Positions 12,205 to 53,760 are shown, counted from the stretch's first letter. The stretch is 64,000 nucleotides of DNA from an uncultured Gemmatimonadales bacterium (GCA_963851265.1 CAWKNZ010000001.1:96001-160000), one strand, 5' to 3'. A program made the numbers and translations. Notes: generated by a model not told the origin, from the sequence alone.

Positions 12205-12211
12205 GCGACCG

Positions 12212-14277: not shown

Positions 14278-14300
14278 GGGCGTTGGGTGGAGTGGAGAGG

Positions 14301-18546: not shown

Positions 18547-18547
18547 G

Positions 18548-19597: not shown

Positions 19598-19629
19598 GAA
19601 ACCCGTCCTTCGGATGCCGAGGGACGGGT
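19588..19629 (-). terminator. riboswitch expression-platform hairpin overlapping the btuF RBS/start
   Basis: Minus strand ACCCGTCC-CTCGGCATCCGAA-GGACGGGT then TTCGTGTTTT; the stem covers AAGGA upstream of the GTG. Confidence 0.55.
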
Positions 19630-19756
19630 GGGGGGAGGATGGGGCCGCGGGGACGGCCGAGCCGCGCGGAGCGGCCGGGCCGAACGTGACCGGTGGTCCG
19701 TGGGACCATCCACCCCGCACCCCTCCCTCGAGGGGCTTGCATGCGGGCGCGGGCGG

Positions 19757-19945
19757 GGCCGGTCTCCTGACTCGAGGCGGGGCCGCCCGCCTTCCCGACG
19801 CGGCGCGCGTCAGTGGCGTGGTGGGCGGTCCGGGGGCGGCGGGCGTGCAGCCAGCTGCGCTGCACGGGTCGTCGCGCCTCTCACAGTGGCGGGGCCGTGC
19901 CGGATTCGCACCGGCTTCCAACTACGTGACCCCGCTCGCACCATC
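19757..19945 (-). ncRNA. cobalamin (AdoCbl) riboswitch
   Basis: Minus strand reads GGT...TGGAAGCCGGTGCGAATCCGGCACGGCCCCGCCACTGTGA...GCCACTG...GGGAAGG...GAGTCAGGAGACCGGCC (B12 box), upstream of btuF. Confidence 0.95.
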
Positions 19946-20033
19946 AGTTGTCCGGTCAACCCTAGCGCGCGACGGGGTCGGTGGCAACCGGCTTGCCCCG
20001 ATCGCCACCGTGCACTCCTGCTCGCTCATCGCC

Positions 20034-21191
20034 GTGTTCGTCCGACGGCTCCCCCCACGGTTGGGTTGCCGCGTCGCGGCCGTGGTCGCTCTCGCGGCAG
20101 CTGCGCGTGCGACCGCGGCGCAGCCCGCCCACTCGCAGCCCGCCCACCCGCAGCCCGCCCACCCGCAGCCGGCGCGCCCCGCGGCCGTGCACGGCCTCTA
20201 CGTTCCGGCCGCGGTCGCGGGGTCGCGTCCGGCTCTCGATTCGCTGCTCGACCGATTGCGCGGAACGAGCGTCAACGCGGTGGTGCTCGACGTCAAGGAG
20301 AACGGGGTCGTGCCGTACCGCAGCCGCGTGCCGCTCGCGCGCGCGGTCGGTGCGGTGCGCCCGGTGATCGCCGACCTGCCCGCACTGCTGCGCGCGGTGC
20401 GCGCGCGCGGGCTGTACCCCATTGCGCGCATCGTCTGCTTCCGCGACCCGGTGCTGGCCGGCGCGCGCCCCGACCGGGCGATCCTGGGGCGGGACGGGCG
20501 GCCGTGGCTCGACCCCGCCTACCGCCAGCGGTGGGTGGATCCGTACGACGCGCGCGTGTGGGCGTACAACGTCGCGCTCGCGCGCGAGGCGGTCGCGTCC
20601 GGCTTCGGCGAGGTGCAGTGGGACTACGTGCGCTTCCCCGACGTGCCCGACTCGGTGCGCGCGGGCCTCGTGTTCCCGGCCGCGCACGGGCGGTCGCCCG
20701 CCGCCGCCATCGACGCGTTCGTCGCGGGTTCGCGCCTGACGTTAGGCCGGCTCGGCGCGCCGGTGACGGTCGACGTGTTCGGCCGCGCGATCACCGAGTC
20801 CGGCGACTCGGAGGGGATCGGCCAGGACTGGGACTCGCTCGCCACGACGGCCGACGCGATCCTGCCGATGATCTACCCGTCGCACTACCGCGCGGGCAAC
20901 TTCGACCTGCCCGACCCGAACGCCGCGCCCTACGAGCTGGTCCGGCGCGCGATGGCGGCGGCGGTGGCGCGCACCCGCTCCCTCCCGCGCGCGCGGGCGC
21001 GCATCCGCCCGTGGCTGCAGGCGTTCACCCTCGGCGCGCCGCCGTACGGGGGGGACGAGGTGCGGGCACAGGTGCGGGGGGCCGCCGACGCGGGGGTGCG
21101 GGAATGGGTGTTGTGGAACGCGGCCGGGGAGTATTCGGACGACGTGCTGGCCGGCGTGGCGCGGGACAGGGGCGGACGTGGGGGGCCGTGA
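20034..21191 (+). CDS. putative glycoside hydrolase (DUF4015-like TIM barrel), secreted; start uncertain
   Basis: VHGLYV, NAVVLDVK, YPIARIVCFRD, WVDPY, GFGEVQWDYVRFPD, IGQDW, PMIYPSHY, RPWLQAF, LWNA. Confidence 0.8.
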   Translation: MFVRRLPPRLGCRVAAVVALAAAARATAAQPAHSQPAHPQPAHPQPARPAAVHGLYVPAAVAGSRPALDSLLDRLRGTSVNAVVLDVKENGVVPYRSRVPLARAVGAVRPVIADLPALLRAVRARGLYPIARIVCFRDPVLAGARPDRAILGRDGRPWLDPAYRQRWVDPYDARVWAYNVALAREAVASGFGEVQWDYVRFPDVPDSVRAGLVFPAAHGRSPAAAIDAFVAGSRLTLGRLGAPVTVDVFGRAITESGDSEGIGQDWDSLATTADAILPMIYPSHYRAGNFDLPDPNAAPYELVRRAMAAAVARTRSLPRARARIRPWLQAFTLGAPPYGGDEVRAQVRGAADAGVREWVLWNAAGEYSDDVLAGVARDRGGRGGP

Positions 21192-21291
21192 CCGGCCGGG
21201 TCACCGGCCGGCGCGACGCTCCCTTCCGCGCGGCGCTCCCAGGGGCGCCCCTCGTCACCGCAGATTCCCGACGCTCTCCCTACCCGCCGAC

Positions 21292-22875
21292 ATGCACGCT
21301 GCCGTTCCTGCCCGCGTCCTGATGGTCCAGGGCACCACGTCGGACGCCGGCAAGTCGACGCTGGTGGCCGCGCTCTGTCGCGTGTTCGCCCGCGCCGGCT
21401 ACCGAGTCGCCCCGTTCAAGGCGCAGAACATGTCGAACAACGCCGCCGTGGTCGACGGCGGCGAGATCGGGCGCGCGCAGGCCGTGCAGGCGACGGCCGC
21501 GGGCGTCGCGCCCACGGTCGACATGAACCCCGTGCTGCTCAAGCCGCAGGGCGACCGCACGTCGCAGCTCGTCGTGTTGGGCCGCGCGCAGCGCGCGCAC
21601 GACGCGGTGGGCTACTACGCGCGGAAGGCCGAGCTGTGGCCGGTGGTCACGGCCGCGCTCGACCGGCTGCGCTCCGCGCACGACGTGGTGGTGATCGAGG
21701 GCGCGGGGAGTCCGGCGGAGATCAACCTCGCGCAGTACGACATCGTCAACATGCGCGTGGCGCGATACGCGGGCGCGCCGGTGCTGCTCGTCGGCGACAT
21801 CGAGCGCGGGGGCGTGTTCGCCGCGCTCTACGGCACGGTCGCGCTGCTCGCCCCCGAGGAGCGCGCACTCGTGCGCGGCTTCGTGATCAACAAGTTCCGC
21901 GGCGACCCGTCGCTGCTCACGCCCGGGTTCGCGATGCTGGAGGAGCGCACGGGCGTGCCGACGTTGGGCGTCCTGCCCTACCTCGACCTGTCGCGCGTGC
22001 CGGCGGAGGACGGGCTCGCACTCGACGCGCAGGGGCGCCTCGCGGGCCTCGCGCACGACGACGAGGGATCCCCCGCGCTCGACGTCGCCGTCCTGCGCCT
22101 GCCGCGGATCGCGAACCTCGACGAATTCCAGCCGCTCGCCTGCGAGCCCGGCGTGCGCGTGCGCTTCGTGCGCTCCCCCGAAGCGCTCGGCGCCCCCGAC
22201 CTCGTGATCGTTCCCGGCACCAAGGCCACGCGCGCCGACCTCGCCTGGGTGCGCGCGCAGGGGCTCGACGCCGCGGTCCGCCGGGCGCACGCCGCGGGCG
22301 CCCGGGTGCTCGGCATCTGCGGCGGCTACCAGATGCTCGGCCTCCGCGTGGACGACCCGCACGGCGTGGAAGGCGCGCCCGGCGGCGACGACGGGTTCGG
22401 CCTGCTCCCGGTCGCCACCGAGTTCGCGGCCGACAAGGTCACCGCGCGCGTGCGCGCGCGCCCGGGCCACGGCGAACCGTTAGGCGCGCCCGCGGGCCTC
22501 GCGCTCGACGCCTACGAGATCCACATGGGCCGCACGCGCCCGACGGGCCCGCTCGGGCCCCCGCCGTTCGCCGTGGGCGACGCGGGCGCGGCCGACGGCG
22601 CGACGTCGGCGGACGGCACCGTCGTGGGGACGTACCTGCACGGCCTGTTCGAGAACCGCGCGTTCCTGCGTGCGGTGGTCGCGGCCGCGGCCGCCCGCAA
22701 CGGCGTGGCGCTCGCGCCGCACGCCACCGACGGCGGGCCGGACGACCCGCGCGACGGCGCCGTCGAGCGCGCGTTCGACGCGCTGGCCGACTCCGTACGC
22801 GCGCACCTCGACCTCGGGGCCGTGACCGCGATGATGGGACTGCCGCCGCTCCCCGCCCCGCCGCCCGATGACTAA
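21292..22875 (+). CDS. cobQ: cobyric acid synthase
   Basis: MVQGTTSDAGKS, APFKAQNMSNN, DMNPVLLKP, EGAGSPAEINL, INKFRGD, GICGGYQMLG, YEIHMG, GTYLHGLF. Confidence 0.96.
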   Translation: MHAAVPARVLMVQGTTSDAGKSTLVAALCRVFARAGYRVAPFKAQNMSNNAAVVDGGEIGRAQAVQATAAGVAPTVDMNPVLLKPQGDRTSQLVVLGRAQRAHDAVGYYARKAELWPVVTAALDRLRSAHDVVVIEGAGSPAEINLAQYDIVNMRVARYAGAPVLLVGDIERGGVFAALYGTVALLAPEERALVRGFVINKFRGDPSLLTPGFAMLEERTGVPTLGVLPYLDLSRVPAEDGLALDAQGRLAGLAHDDEGSPALDVAVLRLPRIANLDEFQPLACEPGVRVRFVRSPEALGAPDLVIVPGTKATRADLAWVRAQGLDAAVRRAHAAGARVLGICGGYQMLGLRVDDPHGVEGAPGGDDGFGLLPVATEFAADKVTARVRARPGHGEPLGAPAGLALDAYEIHMGRTRPTGPLGPPPFAVGDAGAADGATSADGTVVGTYLHGLFENRAFLRAVVAAAAARNGVALAPHATDGGPDDPRDGAVERAFDALADSVRAHLDLGAVTAMMGLPPLPAPPPDD

Positions 22876-23464
22876 CGGCCCCGCGCACGGGTTCCTCCCC
22901 CTCACCCTGCTGCTCGGCGGCGTGCGCTCGGGCAAGAGCGCGCGCGCGGTCGCGATGGCCGATGCCCTCGCCGGCGCGGACGGGCGCGTGCTCTTCGCGG
23001 CCACGGCCGAGGCCTTCGACGACGACATGGCGCGTCGGATCGCCGCGCACCGGGCGGAGCGCCCACCGCACTGGCACGCGGTCGAGGCCCCGCTCGACCT
23101 CGCCGGGGCGGTCTCGGGCGCGCTCGCGGCGGCGGACGCGCCCTACGCGGCCGTCGTCGTCGACTGCCTCACGCTCTGGACGAGCAACCTGCTCCTCTCG
23201 CTCGCCGACCCGCGCGAGGCGGAGGCGCTCGCGGCCGAGCGCGCGGGGGAGTTGCTCGCCGTCGTGCCGGCCGCGCGGGGCGCGCGGTGGATCGTGGTGA
23301 GCAACGAGGTCGGGCTCGGCGTCGTCCCCGCGAGCGCGTTAGGCCGCGCCTTCCGCGACGCGCTCGGCCGCGTGAACCAGCGCGTCGCGGCCGCGGCCGA
23401 CGAGGTCACGCTGATGGTCGCGGGGCTGGAGGTGCCGGTGCGGGCGCGCCGGCCGCCGGGGTAG
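22868..23464 (+). CDS. cobU: bifunctional adenosylcobinamide kinase / cobinamide-phosphate guanylyltransferase
   Basis: LGGVRSGKS, RIAAHRAER, VDCLTLW.SNLL, VSNEVGLGVVP, FRDALGRVNQ, MVAG. Confidence 0.95.
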   Translation: MTNGPAHGFLPLTLLLGGVRSGKSARAVAMADALAGADGRVLFAATAEAFDDDMARRIAAHRAERPPHWHAVEAPLDLAGAVSGALAAADAPYAAVVVDCLTLWTSNLLLSLADPREAEALAAERAGELLAVVPAARGARWIVVSNEVGLGVVPASALGRAFRDALGRVNQRVAAAADEVTLMVAGLEVPVRARRPPG

Positions 23465-42010: not shown

Positions 42011-43099
42011 CTACGCTCGGCGCTGACGGCCAGGGGAGAGGTACTGCGCTTCTCCCCACTCGAACGTCCTCCGCTCCGCGTAATAGTCCGGCCGCCACGG
42101 GATCCTCCCCCCCACGAACCCGACATGCCCGCCACGACGGTGGAACTCCACCGTGAGGCATGGGTTGACGTCGGCTACCCGTCGCACCTCGTCGAGCACG
42201 TCCGCCGGGAGAAACGGATCGTCTTCCGCGCTCAGCAGCAGCGTGGGGATGCGGATTCCCGCGAGGAAGCCGAGCGCGCTCGACCGGGCGTAGTAATCGG
42301 CCGCGTCGTTGAACCCGTGCACGGCCGCGGTGAGCACGTCGTCGAACTCCCACAGCGACCGGAGTCCCGCCAGCCGCTCCCGGTCCACCAGGTCCGGGTA
42401 GACCGCGAGTTTCTGTTCGACCTTACCCGTGAGCGACCGGAGGAAGTTGAGCTCGTAGATCCGCGAGAACCCGCGTCCCACGTGCCGGGACCCGCGCGCG
42501 AGATCGAACGGCACCGAGATCGCCACCGCCGCGCGCACGTTGGCCGGTACCGGATTTGGCGACGGCGCGCTCTGCTCCGGACCGCTCGGTCCGAGCGTCG
42601 GGTCGCCGCGCTCGCCGAGGTACTTGAGCAGCACGTTGCCCCCGAGCGAGACGCCGGCGAGCACGAGCGGGCGGTCCGGCTGCTCCGCCGCGATCCGCTC
42701 CACGACCAGCGCGAAGTCTGTCGTCTCGCCCGAGTGGTAGAAGCGGCGCTGCCGGTTCATCTCGCCGCCGCAGCTGCGGTGCACCAGCAGGTCCATCCCC
42801 CAGCCGCGCCGCCGTGACTGCGCGAACAGGCCCTGCACGTAGTGCGACCGTTCGCCGCCTTCGAGGCCGTGCAGCAGCAGCAGTCGCGGCGTCTCGCGCG
42901 CCGGCTCGAGGCGCACCACGTCGACGAAATCACCGTCCGGCGTGTCCCAGCGTTCCGTGCTGTAGCCTGGCGGACGGCGGCGGGCCAGGGTGCGCGAACT
43001 GCGCGGCTGACGGACGAACTTGCCGTACAGCGTTTGCGCGTGCGCGCCCGGCACCCACCACGCAGGGCGGTAACTCGGCGGCGGGACGACGATGGGCAT
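42011..43099 (-). CDS. YheT-family alpha/beta hydrolase
   Basis: HAQTL, TPDGDFVD, HGLEGG..SHY, RSCGGEMN..RFYHSGET, GVSLGGN, DDPF, GGHVGF; TATAAT 5 nt before the ATG. Confidence 0.9.
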   Translation of the reverse strand: MPIVVPPPSYRPAWWVPGAHAQTLYGKFVRQPRSSRTLARRRPPGYSTERWDTPDGDFVDVVRLEPARETPRLLLLHGLEGGERSHYVQGLFAQSRRRGWGMDLLVHRSCGGEMNRQRRFYHSGETTDFALVVERIAAEQPDRPLVLAGVSLGGNVLLKYLGERGDPTLGPSGPEQSAPSPNPVPANVRAAVAISVPFDLARGSRHVGRGFSRIYELNFLRSLTGKVEQKLAVYPDLVDRERLAGLRSLWEFDDVLTAAVHGFNDAADYYARSSALGFLAGIRIPTLLLSAEDDPFLPADVLDEVRRVADVNPCLTVEFHRRGGHVGFVGGRIPWRPDYYAERRTFEWGEAQYLSPGRQRRA

Positions 43100-43152: not shown

Positions 43153-43485
43153 GTGCTCGACACGCCGCCTACCCTCGCGATCGTCGCCGTCGCCGTCGCC
43201 GGCGCGGCGGCGCCAGCGGCCGTGTTGCACCTCGTACTCGCACACGCGATGCGGGCCCGCGGGCTACCCCGCTGGCGTGTGGCCGACACGCTGCTCGTGA
43301 GTCCCCTGCTCTTCCTCGCCCTGCTCACCGGTTTCGCCGCGCTCGCGCACGCGGTGGCCCGCGTGGCGGCCGACGCGGCGACCGGCCGGGCCACGCATGC
43401 CGATCTCTTCGGCTCGCTCGCCGTCGCGGCGGGCGCGTTCGTCGTGGCGGGGTTCGGCGCGCGCGCGGTCGGGAAGTTGTATTGA
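43153..43485 (+). CDS. small hypothetical membrane protein (3 TM)
   Basis: Three hydrophobic segments; its stop overlaps the HAD start (TTGA). Confidence 0.55.
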   Translation: MLDTPPTLAIVAVAVAGAAAPAAVLHLVLAHAMRARGLPRWRVADTLLVSPLLFLALLTGFAALAHAVARVAADAATGRATHADLFGSLAVAAGAFVVAGFGARAVGKLY

Positions 43486-44195
43486 CGGCGGTACTGCCGC
43501 CGCGTTCGGCCCCGCGCGCGATCCTCTTCGACTTCGGCGGCACGCTCGACGCCGACGGGGTGCCGACGGCGTCGCAGTTCCACGCCGCGTACGCGGCCGA
43601 GCGTGGAACCATCGATGCCGACGGATTCGCCGCCGCGTTCCGCACCTCCGACCATCAACTTGCCGCGCTCGCGCACATCGCCCGCCTCGGATATACCGAG
43701 ACCGTGGAGGCGCAGACCCGGCTCCTCGCCGCCCTCCTGCCCGACGCTGCGGCGGTCGACTGGACCTCGGTCGCCACGCGTGTGACCGCCGCGGCCCGCA
43801 CGATCGCGGCCCGCAACCGCCCCTTGCTCGCGACGCTCCGCGACGGCGCTCGGCTCGGCGTCGTGTCCAACTTCACCGGGAACGTCGATCGCTGCCTGGC
43901 CGAGCTCGGGCTCCTCGATCTGTTCGACACCGTGGCCGACTCCGCCGTCGTGGGCCAGGCGAAACCCGACCCCGCGCTATTCCAGGTGGCGCTCCGCGCG
44001 CTCGACACCCTGCCCGCTGACGCGATGATGGTTGGCGACAACCCGTTCTCCGACGTGCGTGCGGCTTCTGCGCTCGGCATGAGCACGTGCTGGCTCGCCC
44101 CGGCGGAGCGCCCGGTCCCGAGCGGCTGCGCGCCGACGTACCGCATCGCGCGGCTCCCCGAGTTGCGCGGCGTGCTGACGGCGAACGGGCAGTGA
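43482..44195 (+). CDS. HAD-superfamily hydrolase
   Basis: LFDFGGTLDADG, VSNFTGN, AKPDP, MVGDNPFSDV. Confidence 0.88.
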   Translation: MTAVLPPRSAPRAILFDFGGTLDADGVPTASQFHAAYAAERGTIDADGFAAAFRTSDHQLAALAHIARLGYTETVEAQTRLLAALLPDAAAVDWTSVATRVTAAARTIAARNRPLLATLRDGARLGVVSNFTGNVDRCLAELGLLDLFDTVADSAVVGQAKPDPALFQVALRALDTLPADAMMVGDNPFSDVRAASALGMSTCWLAPAERPVPSGCAPTYRIARLPELRGVLTANGQ

Positions 44196-44202
44196 GGGTC
44201 GC

Positions 44203-44982
44203 GTGAGCACGTCGCCCCGGACCATCGCCATGCACGCGCTCGTCCTCGCCGGCGGCGAAGGGTCGCGGCTCGCGGCCGACGGCGTCACCGTCCCCAAGGC
44301 GCTCGTCGAGGTCGGCGGCCGCCCACAACTCGTCAGGCTCGTCCAGACGTTCGCGGACCTCGGCTGTCTCTCGGTCACCTGCCTCGTGCACGAGGCGGTC
44401 GCGCCGCAGATCGATCGCCACGCGCTCCGGGCGGCCGGCGGCGCGGCCGCCGTGCGCGTCGTCGCGTGCCGCACGCCGTCGTCGCTCCACACCCTCGTCG
44501 CCGGGCTCGACGCCGTGCCGGCCGGCCCGGTGTTCTGCTCGATGGTCGACACCGTGATGGCCCCGGCCGACTGGCACGCCGTCCACGCGGCGTGCGGCCG
44601 CGCGCTCGCCGCTGGCGCCGATGCGCTCCTCGCGGTCACGCCGGACCCCGAGGACGACGACGCTCCGCTGCGGGTGCGCGTCGGGCCCGACGGGCGCGTC
44701 GCGCGCGTCGGCGGCGACGCCGCGTCGTATGCGGCCGCGTACGCCTCCGGTGCGCCTCCCGTGCTCATTACCGGCGGAGTGTACGCCTTTGCCCCGGCCG
44801 CGCGCGCGCGGGCGCACGCCCTGGCGGCCGCGGGCGGGCAGCGCATGCGTGTCTTCCTCGCGGCGCTCGTCGACGAGGGCCGCGACGTGCGCGCCGCTGT
44901 GGTGCCGCGCATCCTCGACGTCGACCATCGGCGCGATCTTGACGCCGCGAACGCGTACGCCGCCGGGTGGCAGTCGGGCTGA
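44203..44982 (+). CDS. nucleotidyltransferase (NTP_transferase family)
   Basis: LAGGEGSRL...PKALV, TPSSLHT, SMVDTV, LDVDHRRDL. Confidence 0.85.
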   Translation: MSTSPRTIAMHALVLAGGEGSRLAADGVTVPKALVEVGGRPQLVRLVQTFADLGCLSVTCLVHEAVAPQIDRHALRAAGGAAAVRVVACRTPSSLHTLVAGLDAVPAGPVFCSMVDTVMAPADWHAVHAACGRALAAGADALLAVTPDPEDDDAPLRVRVGPDGRVARVGGDAASYAAAYASGAPPVLITGGVYAFAPAARARAHALAAAGGQRMRVFLAALVDEGRDVRAAVVPRILDVDHRRDLDAANAYAAGWQSG

Positions 44983-45027
44983 CCGTGCGCCAACCCGTGC
45001 CGTGCGGGCCGGGCGCCGCCGGCTTCC

Positions 45028-45084
45028 GTTAATCTGGGGTTAATCGGGAACCCCGCGCTCGGAAACCGTTGCGCAAGCGTTGCG
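45028..45084 (+). promoter_or_regulatory. two pairs of 11-bp-spaced direct repeats (GTTAATC x2, CGTTGCG x2) upstream of the ATP-grasp gene
   Basis: GTTAATC at 45028 and 45039; CGTTGCG at 45067 and 45078; locally AT-richer intergenic DNA. Confidence 0.4.
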
Positions 45085-45147
45085 AACCTCGGTTGGGGTC
45101 GATTGCATACGCTGCGGATCGTGCTGGCCGCGTCACATGTCACCGTC

Positions 45148-46164
45148 ATGCCCCGCGTCGTCGCCCTCTTTCGCAAGTCGTCCTACTCGCCCGCGCAGCA
45201 CCGCACCAACGACACCGCAATCCTCGACGACACGCTCGCGCATTTCGTCGACGCCGGGTGGGACGTCGTGCGGGTGGACGAGGCCGCACTCGATGCGGGT
45301 GACGACGGCGATGACGCGCCGCCCCCCGCCCACGTCGTGCCCCGCGACGCGGACCTGTACCTGAGCATGTCGCAGGGGCCGGCCACCGCCCGCCTGCTCG
45401 AGCTCGAGCGGGCCGGCGCGGTGTTCATCAACCGTCCGTCGAGCGTGCTCGGCTGTCACCGCCACCGGCTCGTCCCGGCGCTCGCCGCGGCGGGCGTGCG
45501 TTTTCCCGCGACCGACGTCGTCGATCTCGCGCTCGCCGATCCGGCGACCGTGGCGGCCAGCCCGGTGGTGCGCGCGGCGGCGCTCTCGGGCGGGCGCGTC
45601 TGGATCAAACGCGGTGACGTGCACGCCGAGCGGGCCGACGACGTCGTCGTGGTCGCCGCGTCCGGCGTGGCGGCGGCCGCGGCGGAGTTCCGCGCGCGCG
45701 GCATCGGGCGCGTCGCGCTGCAGGCCGACGTCGGCGGACCGGTGATCAAGTTCTACGGCGTGGCCGACGGGCGCTTCTTCCGGTGGTACGACGCGGCGGT
45801 CGGGCTCGACGGCCCGCGGCCGGTGGTGGACGAGGAGCGACTGCGGGCGCTCGCCTTCGACGCCGCGCGCGCGCTCGGGCTCGAGGTGTTCGGCGGGGAC
45901 GTCGCGCTCCCAGCGCCAGACGTGCCGGTCCTCATCGACCTCAACGACTGGCCCAGCTTCGCGCCGTTCCGGGCCGAGGCGGCGGCGGCGATCGCTGGCT
46001 ACGCGCTGGGAGGCTGCGCGGCGGCCAACCAGCGGGGCGACGCGCGCGGTCGCTCCCGCGCCTTCCGCGAGACCGCCCTCGCCGCCCCGCGCGCGCGCGC
46101 GATGGCGCGGGGCGAGCACGATGGGGGCGGCCACGAGGGCCGCCCCTACGGCGACTTCGCCTAA
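45148..46164 (+). CDS. ATP-grasp fold protein (ITPK1/RimK-like)
   Basis: VFINRPSSV, WIKRGD, LQADVGG.VIKFYGV, GLEVFGGD, LIDLNDWPSF. Confidence 0.7.
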   Translation: MPRVVALFRKSSYSPAQHRTNDTAILDDTLAHFVDAGWDVVRVDEAALDAGDDGDDAPPPAHVVPRDADLYLSMSQGPATARLLELERAGAVFINRPSSVLGCHRHRLVPALAAAGVRFPATDVVDLALADPATVAASPVVRAAALSGGRVWIKRGDVHAERADDVVVVAASGVAAAAAEFRARGIGRVALQADVGGPVIKFYGVADGRFFRWYDAAVGLDGPRPVVDEERLRALAFDAARALGLEVFGGDVALPAPDVPVLIDLNDWPSFAPFRAEAAAAIAGYALGGCAAANQRGDARGRSRAFRETALAAPRARAMARGEHDGGGHEGRPYGDFA

Positions 46165-46190
46165 TCAGGCACCTGCTAAACACCACGACC

Positions 46191-47585
46191 ATGGCCGGCG
46201 GCGTTCTTCTTCCCACCCACGCGTCCCCCGACGCCTTCACCGACGCGCCGACGGCCGCCGGCCCGCGCTCGCTCGCGATGCACGAGGCCGAGGCCGAGTA
46301 CCTCGCGCCCGGTACGCAGAGCGTCGCGCTCTTCAGCAAGCTCGCCATCGACCACGGCCAGGGGGTGCACCTGTGGGACGTGGACGGCAAGCGCTACACC
46401 GACCTCCTGGCCGGCGTCGGCGTGGCGAGCCTCGGCCACGCGCACCCCAAGTTCGTCGCGGCCATGCAGCGGCAGGTGGCCCGCGTGCACATCGGCTCGT
46501 TCACGAGCGAGCACCGCGCCGCGCTCGTCAAGCTCGTCGCCGACATCGCGCCCGGCGACCTCTCTCGCACGCAGCTGTACTCCAGCGGCGCCGAGGCCGT
46601 CGAGAGCGCGTTCCGCCTCGCCAAGGCCTACACCGGCAAGACCGAGTTCGTCGGCTTCTGGGGCGGCTTCCACGGCAAGACCGCGGGCGTGCTGCCGCTG
46701 CTCTCGGGCAGCTTCAAGCACGGGCTCGGGCCGCTCATGCCGGGCACGTACAGCACGCCCTACGCGGCCTACGGCCGCTGCCCGATCTGCCGCACCGGCG
46801 GCGCGTGCGACTGGACGTGCATCGATTTCCTGCGCAAGAAGATCTTCAACGAGACGGCCAACGACGTCGCCGCGATCATCGTCGAGCCGGTCCAGGGCAC
46901 GGCCGGCAACATCGTGCCCACGCCGGGCTTCCTGCGCCAGTTGCGTGCGCTGTGCGACGAGATCGGCGCGGTGCTCATCGCCGACGAGATGCTCACCGGC
47001 TTCGGGCGCACCGGCAAGATGTTCGCGGTCGAGCACGACGGCGTCGTGCCCGACATCATGACGATCGGCAAGGGCTTCGGCGGCGGCTTCCCGATGACCG
47101 GCCTCATCGTGCGCGACGAGGTCGCGCGGGCCAAGCCGTGGGCCAACCCGAGCGGCTCCTCGTCCAGCTACGGCGGCAACCCGCTCGCCGCGGCCGCGTC
47201 GCGCGTGACGATCGAGACCATGCTGGAAGAGGACCTCGTCGGCAACAGTCGCCGCGTGGGCGCGCGCATGCTGCACGAGGTGGAGCGCTGGGAGCGCGAG
47301 CTGCCCATCGTGCGCGGCGCGCGCGGCCGGGGGCTCATGATCGGCCTCGACCTCGTCTACCCGGACGGCCATCCCAAGGCGGGGCGGCTGCTCGACAAGC
47401 AGGTCACGCGCTGGATCTTCGACTCCGCGCTCGACCGCGGCGTGATGGCGATGCTCTACAACGCCGAGGTGCGCATCAATCCGCCGCTCGTGATCTCGGA
47501 GGCTGAGGCGCTCGAGGCGTTGGGCGTGGTCGAGGGCGTGCTGCGCGAGGCCGCGGAGCGGCTGTCCGAGCATCCGGGCGCCTGA
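46191..47585 (+). CDS. class-III PLP aminotransferase
   Basis: LWDVDGKRYTD, SGAEAVE, FHGKT, IVEPVQG, IADEMLTGFGRTG, PDIMTIGKGFGGG. Confidence 0.93.
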   Translation: MAGGVLLPTHASPDAFTDAPTAAGPRSLAMHEAEAEYLAPGTQSVALFSKLAIDHGQGVHLWDVDGKRYTDLLAGVGVASLGHAHPKFVAAMQRQVARVHIGSFTSEHRAALVKLVADIAPGDLSRTQLYSSGAEAVESAFRLAKAYTGKTEFVGFWGGFHGKTAGVLPLLSGSFKHGLGPLMPGTYSTPYAAYGRCPICRTGGACDWTCIDFLRKKIFNETANDVAAIIVEPVQGTAGNIVPTPGFLRQLRALCDEIGAVLIADEMLTGFGRTGKMFAVEHDGVVPDIMTIGKGFGGGFPMTGLIVRDEVARAKPWANPSGSSSSYGGNPLAAAASRVTIETMLEEDLVGNSRRVGARMLHEVERWERELPIVRGARGRGLMIGLDLVYPDGHPKAGRLLDKQVTRWIFDSALDRGVMAMLYNAEVRINPPLVISEAEALEALGVVEGVLREAAERLSEHPGA

Positions 47586-47588
47586 CCG

Positions 47589-48587
47589 ATGGCCGACGCG
47601 CTGGCGAGCAAGGGCCGCGCGGTCGAGGAGTGGGTCGACCTCCGCTTCTTTCGCCCCGTCGGCATGCGCCTCGCCCGGGCGCTGCTGCCGACCCCGGTCT
47701 CGCCCGACCACGTCACGCTGGGCTGCCTGGCCCTCGGCCTCGCCGCAGGGTGGTGCTTCGTCCCCGCCAGCCCCGCGGTCAACGCGCTCGGGTTCGCGCT
47801 GTTCATCGCGTCCGACCTGCTCGACAGCGCCGACGGGCAGCTCGCGCGGCTCCGCGGCTCGTCCACGCGGTTCGGGCGCATCGTCGACGGCGTGTCGGAC
47901 AACACGCGCTTCATCAACCTGTACCTCAGCATCCTCGCGCGCCTCACGCTCACCGACGGGTGGCCGTGGTGGCCGGCGCTGCTGCTCGCGGCCGCGGCGG
48001 GCGTGAGCCACTCGTACCAGAGCGCGGCCGTGGATGCGGTGCGCAACGCGTACCTCGAAGTCGCGGAGCGCGGCGCCGGCGAGTTCGAACTGCCCGAGGA
48101 CACGCCGCCCGCGTCGGGCAACCCGCTGCTGCGCCTCGCGCAGGGCGGCTACGCCGCCTACGTGCGGCGGCAGGCGCTGCTGCTTCCCGCGACCGTGCGC
48201 CTCGTACGGCGCCTGCGCCGGCTGGACGGGCGCCCGCGGGGCGACCGCCCGGGGGTCGACGGGGCGGCGCGGGCCGCGCGCGACGCCTACGCCGAGCGCG
48301 AGGCGCCCGTGGTGCGCCAGTTCGCGTGGCTCGGGCAGAACATCCGCTTTCCGCTCGTCGCGATCCCGTGCGTCGTCGGGCGCCCGTCGGCGTTCCTCTG
48401 GCTGACGCTCGTCCCGCTCAACCTCGTGCTCGCGGCGGCGCTCGTCGCGCACGAGGGGCGTGCGGCGCGGGTCGCGGCGGCGCTCGACCGCGCCGCGCCC
48501 GAAGGCCCCACGTCCGAGGACCCGACGTCCGCCGCCGGCGAACGCGGGCCGGCCGCGGCCGCGGCGGGTGCGTATGCCCGCGGCTGA
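47589..48587 (+). CDS. CDP-alcohol phosphotransferase family protein
   Basis: Signature DSADGQLAR...FGRIVDGVSD; N-terminal EEWVDLRFFRP; PDHVT. Confidence 0.9.
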   Translation: MADALASKGRAVEEWVDLRFFRPVGMRLARALLPTPVSPDHVTLGCLALGLAAGWCFVPASPAVNALGFALFIASDLLDSADGQLARLRGSSTRFGRIVDGVSDNTRFINLYLSILARLTLTDGWPWWPALLLAAAAGVSHSYQSAAVDAVRNAYLEVAERGAGEFELPEDTPPASGNPLLRLAQGGYAAYVRRQALLLPATVRLVRRLRRLDGRPRGDRPGVDGAARAARDAYAEREAPVVRQFAWLGQNIRFPLVAIPCVVGRPSAFLWLTLVPLNLVLAAALVAHEGRAARVAAALDRAAPEGPTSEDPTSAAGERGPAAAAAGAYARG

Positions 48588-49659
48588 CGCGCGCGACGCC
48601 CGGAACTCCGCCCCCCGCCGTTGGCGCGGCGCGATCGTCGGGCTCGGCGGGATCGCGACGGGCTCGCACCTGCCCGCGTTCCGCGCCACGCCGGCCCTGC
48701 GCCAACGCGCGGAGGTCGTCTGCGCGGTCGACCCGCGGCACGCGGCGGCGGGCACGTTAGGCGGCCTGCGCGTCCTCCCCGACCTCGACGCGCTGGGCGG
48801 GGCGGGCGTCGACTTCGTCGACCTCGCGACGCCGAGCGCGACGCACGTCGCGCTCTCCCGGGACGCCCTCGCGCGCGGGCTGCACGTGCTCTGCGAGAAG
48901 CCGGTCGCCACGCGCCGCGCCGACGCGCTCGCGCTCGCCCGGCTCGCGCGCGAGGCGGGGCGCGTACTCGTGCCCTGCCACCAGTACCGCTTCAACCCGG
49001 TGTGGCGGCGCATCGGCGCGTGGCTCCGGGACGACGCGATCGGGCGCTGGCACCTGATCGAGGTGAGCGTGCACCGCGCCGGCGCCGACCCCGGGCAGCA
49101 GGGCGCCGACGAGGCGCTTCCCTGGCGCGTGCGCCGCGCCGACGCGGGCGGCGGCGTGCTCGTCGACCACGGCACCCACCTGCTCTACACCCTCCTCGAC
49201 CTCGGCGGCGCCCTGCCCGACCGCGTGAGCGCGTACACGGGGCGGCTGGCGCACGCGGAGTACGAAGTCGAGGACACGGCCGAGGTGCGCCTGGAGTACC
49301 ACGACGCCGAGGGCGACCGCGCGGCGCGGCTGTTCTGCACGTGGGCCGACCGGCGGCGCGAGACGCGGGTGAACGTGGTCGGCGCGCGCGGCGCGATCCG
49401 CTGGGTCGACGGCCTGCTCACGCTCGAGCGAGACGGCGAGGTCGAGACGCACGACGTCTCGCGCGAGCTGGACAAGGCCGCGTACGCGGGTTGGTTCGCC
49501 GAGCTGTTCGAGGACTTCGTGGGCGTGCTCGATGCCGGCGCGGGGAGCCAGCGGGCCGAGCGGGCGCTCGACGACGTCGTGCGGGTCGCAACGGTGCTGG
49601 AGGCGGCGTACGGGTCGGCCGCGTGCGGTGCGGGGGTGCGGCCGCTCGGCGCCGATTAG
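48574..49659 (+). CDS. Gfo/Idh/MocA family NAD(P)-dependent oxidoreductase
   Basis: IVGLGGIA, ATPSATH, HVLCEKP, QYRFNP, GGGVLVDHGTH, VEDTA. Confidence 0.9.
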   Translation: MPAADARDARNSAPRRWRGAIVGLGGIATGSHLPAFRATPALRQRAEVVCAVDPRHAAAGTLGGLRVLPDLDALGGAGVDFVDLATPSATHVALSRDALARGLHVLCEKPVATRRADALALARLAREAGRVLVPCHQYRFNPVWRRIGAWLRDDAIGRWHLIEVSVHRAGADPGQQGADEALPWRVRRADAGGGVLVDHGTHLLYTLLDLGGALPDRVSAYTGRLAHAEYEVEDTAEVRLEYHDAEGDRAARLFCTWADRRRETRVNVVGARGAIRWVDGLLTLERDGEVETHDVSRELDKAAYAGWFAELFEDFVGVLDAGAGSQRAERALDDVVRVATVLEAAYGSAACGAGVRPLGAD

Positions 49660-49730
49660 CGAAATCGTTCGGCCCGTAGCATCCTGCACGGCCGCAGGGC
49701 GACGTCCGACCCCCAGCTCCCACCCCACCC

Positions 49731-51440
49731 ATGCGCACGCCCCTCTCCGCCCGCCGCGCCCTCGCGGTGCTCCTCGCCATCTCGTCCGCCGCCCTCGGCA
49801 CCGCCGCCGTCGGCACCGCCGCCGTCGCGCAGCAACCCGCGCCGCCCGCCGGGCCGCCCGCGGCGCCGCCGCGCCAGCCCGACGCCTCGGACTCGATCAA
49901 GTACGTCTACGCGAGTACGCCCCGCCTCGACGCGCTCAAGGCGGAGGCGGCGCGTGAGGTCGATGCGCGCGCGAAGCAGATCCAGGTGATGGTCGACCAG
50001 GTGTTCTCGTACGGCGAGCTCGGGATGCAGGAGGTCGAGACCTCGCGCTACCTGTCGGGGATCCTCGAGCAGAACGGGTTCACCGTCACCCGCGGCGTGG
50101 CCGGCCTCCCCACCGCGTTCGTCGCGCGCTGGGGCTCGGGCAAGCCCGTGATCTCGCTCGGCTCCGACATCGACGACATCCCGCAGGCGGGGCAGAAGCC
50201 CGGCGTCGGCTACCGCGACCCGATCGTCGCGGGCGCGCCCGGGCACGGCGAGGGGCACAACTCGGGCGTGCCGCTCAACATCGCGGCCGCGCTCGTGGTG
50301 AAGAAGATCATGGAGCGCGAGCACCTGCCGGGCACGCTCGTGCTCTGGCCCGGGGTGGCCGAGGAGGCGATGGCGGGCAAGGCGTTCCTAGTGCGCGACG
50401 GCGTGTTCAAGGACGTCGACGTCACGCTGTTCACGCACGTGGGCGACCGCCTGGCCGTGAGTTGGGGGCAGAGTGGGAGTAATGCGCTCATCTCGGCCCT
50501 CTTCAAGTTCCGCGGCACCAGCGCGCACGCCGCGGCCGCGCCGTGGCGCGGGCGGAGCGCGCTCGACGCGGTGATGCTGATGGCCAACGCGTGGGAGTTC
50601 CACCGCGAGCACATGGAGCTGCAGCAGCGCTCGCACTACGTGATCCCCGACGGCGGCGACCAGCCTAACGTGGTGCCCACCACGGCGAGCATCTGGTTCT
50701 ACTTCCGCGAGCGCGACTACGACCGCACGCGCCGGATGTTCGACGACGCGCGCAAGATGGCCGAGGGCGCGACGCTGATGACCGGCACGCAGCTCGACAC
50801 CGTGCAGATGGTCGGCTCGGGGTGGAGCGGGTACTTCTCGCGCCCGGTGGCCGAGGCGATGTACCAGAACATCAAGGCCGTGGGCATGCCCACGTGGGAC
50901 GCGCGCGACCAGGCACTCGCGCGCGGCATCCAGCGCGAGCTCGGCGTGCCCGACAGCGGGCTCTCGACGCGCCCGGGGCGACTCGTCGGGCCGGTCAACG
51001 AGGCCACGCGCATGGGCGGCGGCTCGGACGACATCGGCGACGTGAGCTGGACCGTGCCGACCATCACGCTCAACTATCCGTCCAACATCCCCAACCTGCC
51101 CGGCCACAACTGGGCCAACGCCATCGCGATGGCCACGCCCATCGCGCACAAGGGCGTCGTGGCGGGCGCCAAGGTGCAGGCGATGACGATGCTCGACCTG
51201 CTGTTCCAGCCGAAGCTCGTCGCCGACGCGTGGGACTTCTTCAACACGGTGCAGACCAAGACGGTCAAGTACCGCCCCTTCTTCGCGGCCACCGACAAGC
51301 CCCCCACGTGGCTCAATGAGGGGATCATGGCGAAGTACCGCCCCGAGATGAAAAAGTACTATTACGATCCCAAGAAGTACGGCACGTACCTCGAGCAGCT
51401 CGGCATCACCTACCCGACGGTGCGCAAGGTTGTCCAGTAG
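49731..51440 (+). CDS. secreted M20 amidohydrolase (AbgB-like)
   Basis: ELGMQEVETS, PTAFVA.WGSGKP, GHGEGHNSG, AEE, HAAAAPWRGRSALDAV, GSDDIGDVSW. Confidence 0.88.
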   Translation: MRTPLSARRALAVLLAISSAALGTAAVGTAAVAQQPAPPAGPPAAPPRQPDASDSIKYVYASTPRLDALKAEAAREVDARAKQIQVMVDQVFSYGELGMQEVETSRYLSGILEQNGFTVTRGVAGLPTAFVARWGSGKPVISLGSDIDDIPQAGQKPGVGYRDPIVAGAPGHGEGHNSGVPLNIAAALVVKKIMEREHLPGTLVLWPGVAEEAMAGKAFLVRDGVFKDVDVTLFTHVGDRLAVSWGQSGSNALISALFKFRGTSAHAAAAPWRGRSALDAVMLMANAWEFHREHMELQQRSHYVIPDGGDQPNVVPTTASIWFYFRERDYDRTRRMFDDARKMAEGATLMTGTQLDTVQMVGSGWSGYFSRPVAEAMYQNIKAVGMPTWDARDQALARGIQRELGVPDSGLSTRPGRLVGPVNEATRMGGGSDDIGDVSWTVPTITLNYPSNIPNLPGHNWANAIAMATPIAHKGVVAGAKVQAMTMLDLLFQPKLVADAWDFFNTVQTKTVKYRPFFAATDKPPTWLNEGIMAKYRPEMKKYYYDPKKYGTYLEQLGITYPTVRKVVQ

Positions 51441-51464
51441 GGGCCGGCGCGCGGCCGCGGCCGG

Positions 51465-52541
51465 GTGAACCGCCGCGTTCAGGTTGGCGCGTTCCTCGCC
51501 GGCGTCGCGTTCCTCGCCTGGCTCGTCGTCACCACCGGTGCGCGTGCGATCCTCCGCGACCTCGCGCGCACCGGCTGGACGTTCGTCCCGCTCGTCCTGG
51601 TCTGGGGCGGCGTCTACGCGCTGAATACGGTCGCCTGGCTCGCGCTGCTGCGCGGGGCCGTCACGGCCGACGCCGCCGACGCGCGTGGGCAGCCGGCGCC
51701 GGGGGTGAGCGCGCTCGAGGGGATCGGCGTCGTGCCGTTCCCCCGCGCGTTCGCGATCACCGTCTCCGCGTTCGCGCTCAACTACGTCACGCCGTTCGTC
51801 AGTCTCGGCGGCGAGCCGTTCAAGGGCGCCGCGGCGGCGCGCTGGGTGGGGCGGCCGCGCGCGGCGGCGAGCGTCGTCGGCTTCCGCATCGTCCACACCC
51901 TCGGCCAGTTCCTCTTCTGGGTGCTGAGCATCCCGGTGGCGTGGGCGGTGCTCCCCGCGGACCGCACGATGCGCGCGCTACTGCTCGCGGCCAGCGTGGT
52001 GCTCGTCCCGGCGAGCGCGGGCGCGCTGCTGCTGCTCCGCGCGCGCGTGCTCGAGCGCGGGCTCGACGCGCTCGGCCGCGTGCGGCTCGGCCGCGCGCTC
52101 GACGCGTTAGGCGCGCGGCTGCTGGCGCGCCTCGAGCCGCGCCGCGCCGCGCTCGCCGCGGTCGACGCGGACCTCGCCGCGGTGGCCCGCCACCCCGCGA
52201 CGCTCGCCGTCGCGCTGGGCGCGGAGGTCGCCGGGCGCTTCCTGGCCGCGGTCGAGTTCGTGCTCGTCGCGCGCGTCGTCGGCGCGCGGTTCGGGTACGC
52301 CGACGCGGTGGTCGCCGCGGGCGTGTCGCAGGTCGTGATGAACCTGCTGTTCTTCGTCCCCTTCGAGGCCGGCACGCGCGAGGGCGGGCTCTTTCTCGTC
52401 GCGCGGCTGCTCGGACTGGCGCCGGCGGTGGGCGTCTACGCCGCGCTCGTCACCCGGCTGCGCGAGCTGACGTGGATCGGGATCGGGCTGGCGCTGATCT
52501 GGGCGACCGGGTCCGGCGGGCGGGCGCGGAACGAGGCGTAG
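51465..52541 (+). CDS. lysylphosphatidylglycerol-synthase TM / UPF0104 flippase-like membrane protein
   Basis: FALNYVTPFVSLGGEPFK, FFVPFEAGTREGG, TRLRELTW; multiple TM segments. Confidence 0.8.
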   Translation: MNRRVQVGAFLAGVAFLAWLVVTTGARAILRDLARTGWTFVPLVLVWGGVYALNTVAWLALLRGAVTADAADARGQPAPGVSALEGIGVVPFPRAFAITVSAFALNYVTPFVSLGGEPFKGAAAARWVGRPRAAASVVGFRIVHTLGQFLFWVLSIPVAWAVLPADRTMRALLLAASVVLVPASAGALLLLRARVLERGLDALGRVRLGRALDALGARLLARLEPRRAALAAVDADLAAVARHPATLAVALGAEVAGRFLAAVEFVLVARVVGARFGYADAVVAAGVSQVVMNLLFFVPFEAGTREGGLFLVARLLGLAPAVGVYAALVTRLRELTWIGIGLALIWATGSGGRARNEA

Positions 52542-52557
52542 GCCGCGCCGGGGCCGC

Positions 52558-53760
52558 CTACAGCTCCCGGTCGTACAGGCGGTAGCGCTTCGTGATCTCC
52601 GCCCCGAGCTTCTCCATCGGCGTGCGCATGGCCATGTTGTCCTCGAGGATCCACGAGAACTCGCCGCTGCGCATCTTCTTCCGGATGCCCGTGCGGAAGA
52701 GGTACAGGTAGAGCAGCTCCGCCGCGCCGGTGCGCCGGAATTTCGGGAGCACGCCGAGCGTGAGCACGCGCAGCGCGTTGATCTTGCGCCCGTACCAGAG
52801 GCCCTTCGCCCAGCCGATCGGGAAGAGGCTCCCGTTCATCGGCTTGAGCGCCTGGTTGAGGTCGGGCAGCGCGATGGCGAAGCCGGCCGTCTCGCCCTTG
52901 ACCTCGACGAAGGCGACGAGGTCGAAATCCGCCACCGGCTTGAGCTGCTTCGCCAGGTGGTCGAACTCCTCGGGCGTGAACGGGACGAAGCCCCAGTTCG
53001 CCTCCCACGCGCCGTTGTACAGGTCGCGGATGCGCGTGATCTCGGCGTCGAAATTCTTCTTGTCGAACGGACGGACGACCACGCCGAAGCGCTCGCGCGC
53101 GAGGCGCTCGAAGTTGCGCAGGCGCTCCGGGATGTGGGGTGTCGCCTCCTCCTCGGTCGCGTTCGGCGGCACGCCGAGCGAGTCGGCCGAGAGCTCGTAG
53201 GCGAGCACGTCCTTGGCCTTGTGGAACCCCGCGCCCTCGATCAACTCCGCGTAGTACGGCGGGTTGTACGGCATCATGATGGACGGGTCGCGGTCGAACC
53301 CGTCGACGAGCAGCCCCCAATCCTCGTTGGACGAGAAGTTGGCCGGGCCGCGCATGACCGTGAGGCCGCGCTCGCGCAGCCAGTCGGCCGCCGCGTCGAG
53401 CAGCGCGCGTGCTACGTCGGGGCTGCGTTCGCACTCGAACAGCCCGAAGAACCCGACGGCCTCGTGATGCGTCTGTTCGTGCAGCCGGTTGCGGATCGCG
53501 GCCACGCGCCCGACGATCACGCCGGCCGAGTTGCGCGCGAGCAGCAGCTCCACCTCGGCGTGCGCGTGGAACGGGTGCTTCTTCGGATCGATGAGCGCGG
53601 CGACCTCGCCCTTGAGCGGGGGGACCCAGTGTGGCTCGGCGCGGTGCAGCCGGAAGGGCAGGTCGATGAACGCCCGCCTGTCGGCCGCACTGCGCACGGG
53701 CGTGATCTGAACGCGGGTCACGCGGCCGGTAGAGGGAGGAGATTCGAGCGACGTAGCCAA
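52558..53760 (-). CDS. GNAT-fold protein (YghO-like; bacterial ceramide-synthase family candidate)
   Basis: FIDLPFRL...HWVPPL, GRVAAI, GFFGLFE, MRGPANFS.NE.WGLLVDGF...MMPYNPPYY, AWEANWGFVP, LPDLNQ, LGVLPKFR, SWILEDN, KRYRLY. Confidence 0.8.
   Translation of the reverse strand: MATSLESPPSTGRVTRVQITPVRSAADRRAFIDLPFRLHRAEPHWVPPLKGEVAALIDPKKHPFHAHAEVELLLARNSAGVIVGRVAAIRNRLHEQTHHEAVGFFGLFECERSPDVARALLDAAADWLRERGLTVMRGPANFSSNEDWGLLVDGFDRDPSIMMPYNPPYYAELIEGAGFHKAKDVLAYELSADSLGVPPNATEEEATPHIPERLRNFERLARERFGVVVRPFDKKNFDAEITRIRDLYNGAWEANWGFVPFTPEEFDHLAKQLKPVADFDLVAFVEVKGETAGFAIALPDLNQALKPMNGSLFPIGWAKGLWYGRKINALRVLTLGVLPKFRRTGAAELLYLYLFRTGIRKKMRSGEFSWILEDNMAMRTPMEKLGAEITKRYRLYDREL

Follow-up and report, generated by a model that had tools for sequence, protein, structure and literature searches.

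What is made by a run of genes in which an aminotransferase and a dehydrogenase stand among a nucleotidyltransferase, a CDP-alcohol phosphotransferase and a flippase-like membrane protein? The question is raised by a locus of an uncultured Gemmatimonadales soil bacterium, located in the window, i.e. the whole stretch of 64,000 nucleotides analysed here (GCA_963851265.1 CAWKNZ010000001.1:96001-160000, corresponding to G000:C1:96001-160000, ~74% GC). The genome is Gemmatirosa-like, with a Gemmatirosa sp. metagenome-assembled genome (MAG) containing the closest named relative of its ATP-grasp gene (90% identity). Seven genes of this locus, encoding a HAD protein, the nucleotidyltransferase, an ATP-grasp protein, a class-III aminotransferase, the CDP-alcohol phosphotransferase, a Gfo/Idh/MocA dehydrogenase and an LPG-synthase-like protein, constitute a conserved block found in Gemmatimonadota and several other phyla. 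From sequence comparisons, it is considered somewhat better than an even chance that this block makes an inosamine (amino-deoxy-inositol) phosphate head group, which would be transferred to ceramide.

A search of 301 Gemmatimonadota genomes detected the ATP-grasp gene in 37. The 36 other Gemmatimonadota loci were combined with 80 GTDB loci (some contigs being shared) into an ATP-grasp-anchored set of 116, comprising 72 loci from Gemmatimonadota and 44 from other groups, whose genes were compared by all-versus-all BLAST on 2002 filtered open reading frames (ORFs). As far as their contigs extend, the 72 Gemmatimonadota loci repeat the order HAD, nucleotidyltransferase, ATP-grasp, aminotransferase, CDP-alcohol phosphotransferase, dehydrogenase and LPG-synthase-like gene (HAD in 68, nucleotidyltransferase in 71, aminotransferase in 70, CDP-alcohol phosphotransferase in 67, dehydrogenase in 64 and LPG-synthase-like gene in 60), and the HAD gene is present in 108 of the 116 loci overall. 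The order of the core, that is of the block without the aminotransferase and the dehydrogenase, is shared by Gemmatimonadota with at least seven other phyla as judged by record titles, which include Ignavibacteria, Verrucomicrobia, Bacteroidota, Syntrophobacteraceae, Acidobacteriota, Elusimicrobia, Methylomirabilota and others. Among loci anchored on the aminotransferase (the best 80 of 560 metagenome loci, counted where the flank suffices, and mostly close kin that are not independent), this gene is accompanied by the ATP-grasp gene in 74 of 77, the nucleotidyltransferase in 61 of 65, HAD in 61 of 62, the CDP-alcohol phosphotransferase in 66 of 69, the dehydrogenase in 58 of 58 and the LPG-synthase-like gene in 51 of 52. 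A search of Bacteroidaceae covered 15 genomes, six of them with the ATP-grasp gene, a phylum-wide search of Myxococcota returned one genome, and the ATP-grasp protein found no match when searched against plasmids. One cultured carrier is Desulfoferrobacter suflitae DRH4, with the HAD, nucleotidyltransferase, ATP-grasp, aminotransferase, dehydrogenase and LPG-synthase-like genes. Some variation accompanies the block in other genomes. Many Gemmatimonadales clusters carry, 3' of the LPG-synthase-like gene, a 145-residue membrane protein without Pfam family (L078:6651-7094; 41 of 117 loci) and a second, short CDP-alcohol phosphotransferase (L103:10663-11214; 42 of 117 loci), neither found in this genome, and in Ignavibacteria-type loci (L105, L107, L108, L112, L114, L118) three ABC-transporter-like genes, MlaE/MlaF/MlaD-like by eye, separate the nucleotidyltransferase from the ATP-grasp gene. 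Three loci titled Bifidobacterium, Syntrophomonadaceae and Hyphomicrobiales (L111, L132, L095) encode proteins that group with Verrucomicrobia, Ignavibacteria and Gemmatimonadota, for which mis-binning or transfer is possible.

The aminotransferase and the dehydrogenase form one portable module that is an optional addition to the core. Among the 301 genomes, the aminotransferase occurs in 43 and the dehydrogenase in 42, all 42 being aminotransferase-positive with none having the dehydrogenase only, and the lone aminotransferase-only genome (G040) has its block on a 3.8-kb contig; the profiles used were partly built from these same genomes and few candidates per genome were scored. The 44 other-phylum loci contain the aminotransferase in 32 and the dehydrogenase in 29, the three aminotransferase-only loci being contigs of 2.9-4.1 kb, and none of the 12 loci lacking the aminotransferase has the dehydrogenase. 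When 13 genomes with aminotransferase-less clusters were searched for this family, the best match was E 2.6e-79 or there was none, members scoring 1e-173 or better. The module is also found apart from the core. In G215 and G224, it lies in an operon with a PIP-synthase-like CDP-alcohol phosphotransferase (L151:8054-11842, L153:9388-14092), to which G224 adds a HAD-IB phosphatase and a GtrA protein, and in a Myxococcia MAG (L267, 8327-12322) it is followed by an IPCT/DIPPS-like fusion. Thus, counting the core block, the pair is co-located with inositol-type transferases in three architectures. Among the named organisms with relatives of the G215 enzyme are Myxococcaceae and Anaeromyxobacteraceae MAGs.

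The aminotransferase constitutes, on sequence grounds, a separate class-III subfamily with its own substrate, since it scores below every NCBIfam cut-off shown (best 346 vs 552; GABA transaminase 273 vs 507; ArgD 260 vs 410), is 28-35% identical to solved structures of GABA (4-aminobutyrate) transaminases and racemases, and has its specificity residues replaced. Alignment to PuuE and the archaeal 7VNO enzyme revealed the changes of GRT to GKT, QGE to QGT and DEVQ to DEM(I/L), the arginine, glutamate and glutamine of these motifs being what we take to be the positions governing GABA specificity. K140, T214 and M244 are each present in 38 of 38 members, with Q at 245 in two of 38, such that this protein has K140, T214 and M244-I245 in place of R, E and V-Q of GABA transaminases; a serine-rich loop lies at 298-303. 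An identity as a GABA or ornithine aminotransferase was rejected on the sub-cut-off scores together with the replaced residues. The dehydrogenase contains the Rossmann motif, CEKP and the D-x-x-x-H of the Gfo/Idh/MocA family. The original prediction, which had read these genes from the sequence alone, was to fall if such a pair were not conserved with the other genes or were a GABA or ornithine enzyme, and the sequence comparisons point to neither.

The ATP-grasp protein has no Pfam or NCBIfam match, its fold being confirmed by a structure model and fold searches. Its family profile matches AtITPK4 with E 5.9e-6 (DLNDWPSF aligned with DLNYLPSF) and human ITPK1 with 1e-3, and it falls outside Pfam PF05770 (best E 0.015; 8 of 55 members at E<=1). 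R105, K154, K201, D251, D264 and N266 are found in 55 of 55 aligned members and H159 in 54 of 55. These residues were matched, by order only, to the ATP and metal ligands of the Asp1 inositol kinase, Arg123, Lys197, His204, Lys260, Asp321, Asp333 and Asn335 (PMC9765450), H159 and K201 being paired with His204 and Lys260 by position and without residue-level superposition, while D264-x-N266 aligns to ITPK4. The protein is probably a cyclitol kinase, its catalytic residues being putatively of the inositol-kinase type. A quick ATP-grasp tree, covering 52 of 55 rows (without L110, L131 and the second copy from L140), has Q or E at residue 76 for all 41 aminotransferase-positive members and R for nine of the 11 negative ones; L131 has Q at this residue and its genome carries the pair on another contig. 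The loss of Arg at residue 76 would fit an amine-bearing substrate and thereby amination ahead of phosphorylation.

The remaining core proteins can be placed by similar comparisons. The HAD protein is proposed to be a soluble cyclitol-phosphate phosphatase, and the nucleotidyltransferase, whose profile matches the IPCT structures 2XME, 4JD0 and 4MND near full length (E 2e-13 to 9e-13), is proposed to be a CTP:cyclitol-phosphate cytidylyltransferase. The CDP-alcohol phosphotransferase has the complete DxxDGxxAR..GxxxDxxxD motif at 47823 and is proposed to move the head group to ceramide. The LPG-synthase-like protein, which matches TIGR03476 HpnL below cut-off, probably participates in translocation. 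Transmembrane-like segments were found in none of the HAD, nucleotidyltransferase, ATP-grasp, aminotransferase and dehydrogenase proteins.

The suggestion of ceramide comes from the GNAT-fold gene that converges on the block. In relatives, it sits between an SPT-like gene and an SDR gene, often with a PAP2 gene, adjoining the block (L036, L042, L035 and many others), and of the 72 Gemmatimonadota loci 27 have GNAT, 25 have SPT and 28 have SDR beside the block; the best match of the relatives' SPT-like gene is NF047600 (520 vs a cut-off of 640). In this genome, where the original prediction asked for spt to be located, SPT-like, PAP2 and SDR genes lie on another contig (C2:269929-273976), with SPT scoring 465 vs the cut-off of 640. 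This region (L278, G000:C2:264001-275000) contains the SPT-like gene, a divergent PAP2 gene, SDR and two GT4 glycosyltransferases, and is probably a ceramide and glycosphingolipid locus. GNAT occurs in 187 of 301 genomes (G056, G096 and G181, unpublished, included), in 36 of 36 other ATP-grasp-positive genomes and in none of six genomes having the pair without the core; in one family it is found in 10 of 70 members, yet in three of three that are ATP-grasp-positive. A PDB sequence search with the GNAT protein gave no match, and the ESM Atlas returned only hypothetical or GNAT clusters. Its homologs are annotated 'dATP pyrophosphohydrolase', which we take to be the label carried by Caulobacter bCerS, itself presumably a GNAT-fold protein. 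Genes for Spt, bCerS and CerR frequently lie together (bioRxiv 10.1101/2024.01.25.577268), and the GNAT protein is probably a bCerS-like bacterial ceramide synthase. Furthermore, in B. vulgatus, a carrier of the alternative inositol-lipid cluster discussed below, ceramide phosphoinositol (Cer-PI) is present and diacyl phosphatidylinositol (PI) is reported as undetected (PMC10056535). Because of this finding, the adjacency of GNAT, SPT and SDR, and the co-occurrence of GNAT, ceramide appears a likelier acceptor for the block than diacylglycerol.

Inositol would be supplied from elsewhere in the genome. As the original prediction stated, no MIPS gene is in the window, and the ino1 that it proposed to look for exists as two MIPS genes, both on contig C2. 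One of them directly follows a PIP-synthase-like gene (L001, G000:C2:992229-994625), and this genome probably also makes ordinary PI via the PIP route. The second lies in an operon with YcaO-like, TIM-barrel and another Gfo/Idh/MocA gene (L002, G000:C2:378998-386068). MIPS is linked to the block in 18 of the 44 other-phylum loci, and 10 of the 32 that are aminotransferase-positive have MIPS and the pair in one locus.

In the proposed pathway, MIPS would provide inositol phosphate, from which the HAD phosphatase would free myo-inositol. The NAD-dependent dehydrogenase would then oxidise one hydroxyl to yield an inosose, which the class-III aminotransferase would convert to an inosamine. Phosphorylation of this cyclitol by the ATP-grasp protein and its conversion to a CDP derivative by the nucleotidyltransferase would allow the CDP-alcohol phosphotransferase to attach the head group to ceramide, itself supplied by SPT, the GNAT protein next to the block and the reductase, with the LPG-synthase-like protein flipping or otherwise handling the lipid. 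Such a phosphatase-kinase couple could shift the phosphate to another ring position and open a window for aminating free inositol. The core without the pair would make ordinary phosphoinositol ceramide, and with it a zwitterionic product 0.984 Da lighter than the phosphoinositol lipid. The original prediction had a polyol phosphate activated, transferred to a lipid and aminated; the head-group pathway it described gains from the cluster's relatives, the conserved pair and the presence of MIPS and SPT in the genome, but amination is now placed before CDP activation and not after transfer, ceramide is favoured over diacylglycerol, and probable roles are given to the GNAT and ATP-grasp proteins, for which it had named none. 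The prediction is thus supported in part.

Several observations weigh against this pathway and are considered together with the rival explanations. The same amino-inositol chemistry might serve another acceptor, such as diacylglycerol, a dialkyl glycerol ether, a hopanoid or a soluble polyol (di-inositol-phosphate-like), which is regarded as unlikely but worth keeping in view. GNAT is near in only 10 and SPT in 9 of the 44 other-phylum loci, the nearest structure neighbour of the CDP-alcohol phosphotransferase is AF2299 followed by PIP synthases, and six of the 43 aminotransferase-positive genomes lack both the ATP-grasp gene (profile search 0 of 5) and GNAT, so the pair would also serve non-ceramide hosts. 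However, GNAT accompanies every ATP-grasp-positive Gemmatimonadota genome, SPT, GNAT and SDR adjoin the block in about one third of the loci, the flippase-like gene belongs to the core, and the B. vulgatus lipid data (PMC10056535) favour Cer-PI. The pair might instead run in reverse as a salvage route, turning an environmental aminocyclitol via inosose into inositol for an ordinary phosphoinositol lipid, with no aminated lipid being made. Both the dehydrogenase and the aminotransferase reactions are reversible. This improbable explanation is kept alive since six genomes carry the pair but not the core and four of them have no adjoining lipid gene: in G103, G110, G218 and G275 (L149, L150, L152, L154) a stand-alone pair adjoins threonine synthase, as it does in metagenome loci L167 and L210. 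Also, MIPS is unlinked to the block in this genome. Counting against the proposed pathway itself, MIPS is linked to the block in only one of 72 Gemmatimonadota loci, and 22 of the 32 aminotransferase-positive other-phylum loci have no MIPS in the stretch covered. Against salvage, the pair sits among biosynthetic genes with MIPS kept in 10 loci, its conserved neighbours include no transporter or regulator, and MIPS is present in all five core-less genomes examined. The four stand-alone-pair genomes carry, besides MIPS, an extra PIP-synthase-like gene; a close homolog occurs in 11 family members, four aminotransferase-positive and seven negative (G156 flagged unpublished), so it lends weak support to a link of the pair with inositol-type transferases, and the idea that it strictly accompanies the stand-alone pair is unsupported. 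Residue 76 of the ATP-grasp protein speaks against salvage by differing between pair-positive and pair-negative clusters. However, this pattern follows the tree, with four changes, and may reflect ancestry; the exceptions are L106 (Q) and L148 (E), in whose genomes the aminotransferase was sought elsewhere and not found.

Comparably improbable is that the pair aminates another polyol or sugar phosphate, e.g. a hexose phosphate as in kanosamine synthesis, or that the ATP-grasp protein is an amide ligase acylating the amine, which would give an amino-sugar or N-acylated head group. The dehydrogenase scores 54.8 vs 355 bits for IolG TIGR04380, though this is its best NCBIfam match, and its profile ranks many sugar 3-dehydrogenases above inositol dehydrogenases. 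For the nucleotidyltransferase, RmlA-type sugar-1-phosphate transferases outrank IPCT (E to 1e-16) over a shorter stretch. Solved class-III enzymes among the matches include no cyclitol aminotransferase, and K140 and K153 of the aminotransferase could bind phosphate. The ATP-grasp fold is nearest the ArgX/RimK/LysX ligases (Z 21.2, root-mean-square deviation (rmsd) 2.8, 249 aligned), kinase matches being weaker (PPIP5K2, Z 18.1, rmsd 3.4, 248 aligned; ITPK1, Z 17.0, rmsd 3.9, 249 aligned), and the fold search does not decide between kinase and ligase. However, RimK has Arg and Glu-x-Asn where the ATP-grasp family has K201 and D264-x-N266, and linkage to MIPS persists. Moreover, the ATP-grasp gene is also present in clusters without the aminotransferase (12 of 44 other-phylum loci and four of four Bacteroidaceae-family loci), which argues against a ligase reserved for the newly introduced amine. 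Lastly, it is very improbable that the block is no single pathway but a chance assembly around an ordinary GABA or ornithine aminotransferase. Automatic annotation does name a 4-aminobutyrate aminotransferase, and the M20 gene shows that unrelated genes insert at the locus, but the order conserved across phyla, the strict pairing, the sub-cut-off scores and the replacement at K140 and T214 in all 38 members speak against it. The synthesis of an inosamine phosphate head group for ceramide retains our preference.

The M20 gene, present between the dehydrogenase and LPG-synthase-like genes, is a recent insertion and a passenger. The original prediction had allowed that it might be an unrelated insertion, which is borne out by its absence from all 116 ATP-grasp-anchored and 48 aminotransferase-anchored loci (those with enough flank) and by the variability of the site within the genus, where this gap (49660-51464; compared with L274:10681-12594 and L275) is occupied by M20 here and in G329, by a Peptidase_S15-type hydrolase in G330 and by no gene in G327. 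On the same counts, M20 as a pathway member was rejected. Both types of insert start with a signal-like segment, after which comes a Gln/Pro/Ala-rich stretch that is similar in the two.

All genes listed in the original prediction are intact by ORF, Pfam and NCBIfam scans, run in one direction with GNAT convergent (Table 1), and contain the four motifs quoted there (FDFGGTLD at 43527, GEGSRL at 44254, TPSSLH at 44473 and EEWVDLRFFRP at 47625). Intergenic gaps are -14 to +71 nt, with the exception of 165 nt upstream of the ATP-grasp gene, the GC content at third codon positions is 0.89-0.97 for the block genes, and promoter and terminator scans gave one site each, which is chance level. The 110-residue membrane ORF at the 5' end, where the range given in the original prediction starts and which is absent from its gene list, has homologs in the same-genus genomes G330 and G327 only and in none of the 116 other loci; it is probably genus-restricted and outside the pathway. 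A YheT-like alpha/beta hydrolase (42011-43099, minus strand), divergent from the block, is a neighbour within the genus only, and BtuR/CobO-, CobQ- and CobU-like cobalamin-related genes were seen by eye at 10419-23464.

Table 1. Genes of the locus, with positions in the window
Feature	Position	Strand	Evidence and remarks
110-aa membrane ORF	43153-43485	+	3 hydrophobic segments; 4-nt overlap with HAD start; no family match
HAD-IA phosphatase, putative (core)	43482-44195	+	PF00702 E 2.9e-20
Nucleotidyltransferase (core)	44203-44982, start may be 44230	+	PF12804 E 1.1e-10
ATP-grasp protein (core)	45148-46164	+	AlphaFold model pLDDT 94.5; fold searches
Class-III pyridoxal-phosphate (PLP) aminotransferase (amination module)	46191-47585	+	PF00202 E 3.2e-93
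CDP-alcohol phosphotransferase (core)	47589-48587	+	PF01066 E 1.8e-10
Gfo/Idh/MocA dehydrogenase (amination module)	48574-49659	+	PF01408/PF22725; CEKP, DHGTH motifs
M20 amidohydrolase, N-terminal hydrophobic segment	49731-51440	+	TIGR01891 above cut-off
LPG_synthase_TM, flippase-like membrane protein (core)	51465-52541	+	PF03706 E 3.2e-19
GNAT-fold protein	52558-53760	-	PF00583 E 6e-6

The cluster is real, conserved and uncharacterised, and adds the aminotransferase-dehydrogenase pair to an alternative inositol-lipid cluster that is itself already putative. New here are the count of the pairing across genomes, the architectures that lack the core, the link to ceramide seen inside one family, the history of the M20 insertion and the residue-76 pattern. 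Neither an amino-inositol membrane lipid nor a characterisation of such a cluster was found in the open-access literature, subscription papers and supplements being outside the scope. A bolder extension, held tentatively and thought rather less than evenly probable, is that an undescribed zwitterionic inosamine-phosphoceramide occurs in multiple phyla, made with a class-III cyclitol aminotransferase and a bacterial ITPK-like cyclitol kinase that would each be the first of their kind, that the portable pair serves at least three inositol-lipid routes, that amino-inositol lipids are common and overlooked in soil and sediment bacteria, and that the same kinase is a missing enzyme of the gut Bacteroidales pathway. 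Amino-inositol lipids would be isobaric with hexosamine-phosphate lipids. If the proposed head-group pathway is right, abundant uncultured soil lineages would have a new membrane lipid differing by -0.984 Da from phosphoinositol ceramide, for which existing lipidomes can be mined, and the change from an anionic to a zwitterionic head group would alter surface charge, with possible effects on tolerance to cationic peptides or acid. The soluble enzymes of the block can be assayed with simple substrates, and the P. vulgatus/Prevotella pathway becomes more testable with a core ATP-grasp gene named and another role for HAD.

Several known systems share parts of this design. In streptidine synthesis, a dehydrogenase and a PLP aminotransferase act with a phosphatase before and a kinase after them. 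MosB and StsC are DegT-type enzymes and not class III. As in the rhizopine route of IolG/IdhA and MosB, the pair would act as a dehydrogenase followed by a PLP aminotransferase from inositol to inosamine, and IolG with MosB converts myo-inositol to scyllo-inosamine in vitro (PMC6668481). However, rhizopine and streptidine products are soluble signals or antibiotics made without CDP activation or lipid transfer, unlike the lipid proposed here. With IPCT/DIPPS (2XME, 4JD0, 4MND), the block shares a cytidylyltransferase and a CDP-alcohol phosphotransferase for a CDP-activated head group, but it scores 19.4 and 29.2 vs 580 bits for NF041135 and has additional HAD, ATP-grasp, flippase-like and amination genes. 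The ATP-grasp protein resembles ITPK1/PPIP5K in its fold and may, by order, share their set of His, Lys, Asp and Asp-x-Asn residues, and differs in its low identity (12-19%), its greater fold likeness to RimK/LysX and its position outside PF05770; ITPK1-type kinases are known from eukaryotes and Lokiarchaeota (PMC8024741). As in the Spt-bCerS-CerR pathway (PMC11087976, PMC11334938), SPT-like, acyltransferase-fold and SDR genes cluster beside the block in relatives and all three are present here, but in this genome GNAT is beside the block with SPT and SDR on another contig, and the bCerS likeness comes from gene context.

The closest likeness is to the 'alternative' inositol-lipid cluster of Phocaeicola (Bacteroides) vulgatus and Prevotella, whose functions are given as unconfirmed (Heaver et al. 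2022, PMC9246714). The original prediction had drawn this link, and it holds, as the same gene families are found: NTP transferase, CDP-alcohol phosphotransferase and HAD occur together with an LPG-synthase-like gene nearby, and window proteins of these families align with Bacteroidales members. Bacteroidaceae-family loci have the order nucleotidyltransferase, ATP-grasp, CDP-alcohol phosphotransferase, LPG-synthase-like gene, HAD and MIPS in four of four cases, which, judging from locus tags, would fit the one-gene gaps between BVU_RS13095, 13105 and 13115. Unlike that cluster, the present block has the aminotransferase-dehydrogenase pair added and a different order, and MIPS is not in its vicinity, a feature for which PMC9246714 acknowledges exceptions. 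The accessible text of that paper contains no 'aminotransferase' and mentions no ATP-grasp gene, and it proposes HAD as the ceramide transferase, whereas a soluble phosphatase is suggested here.

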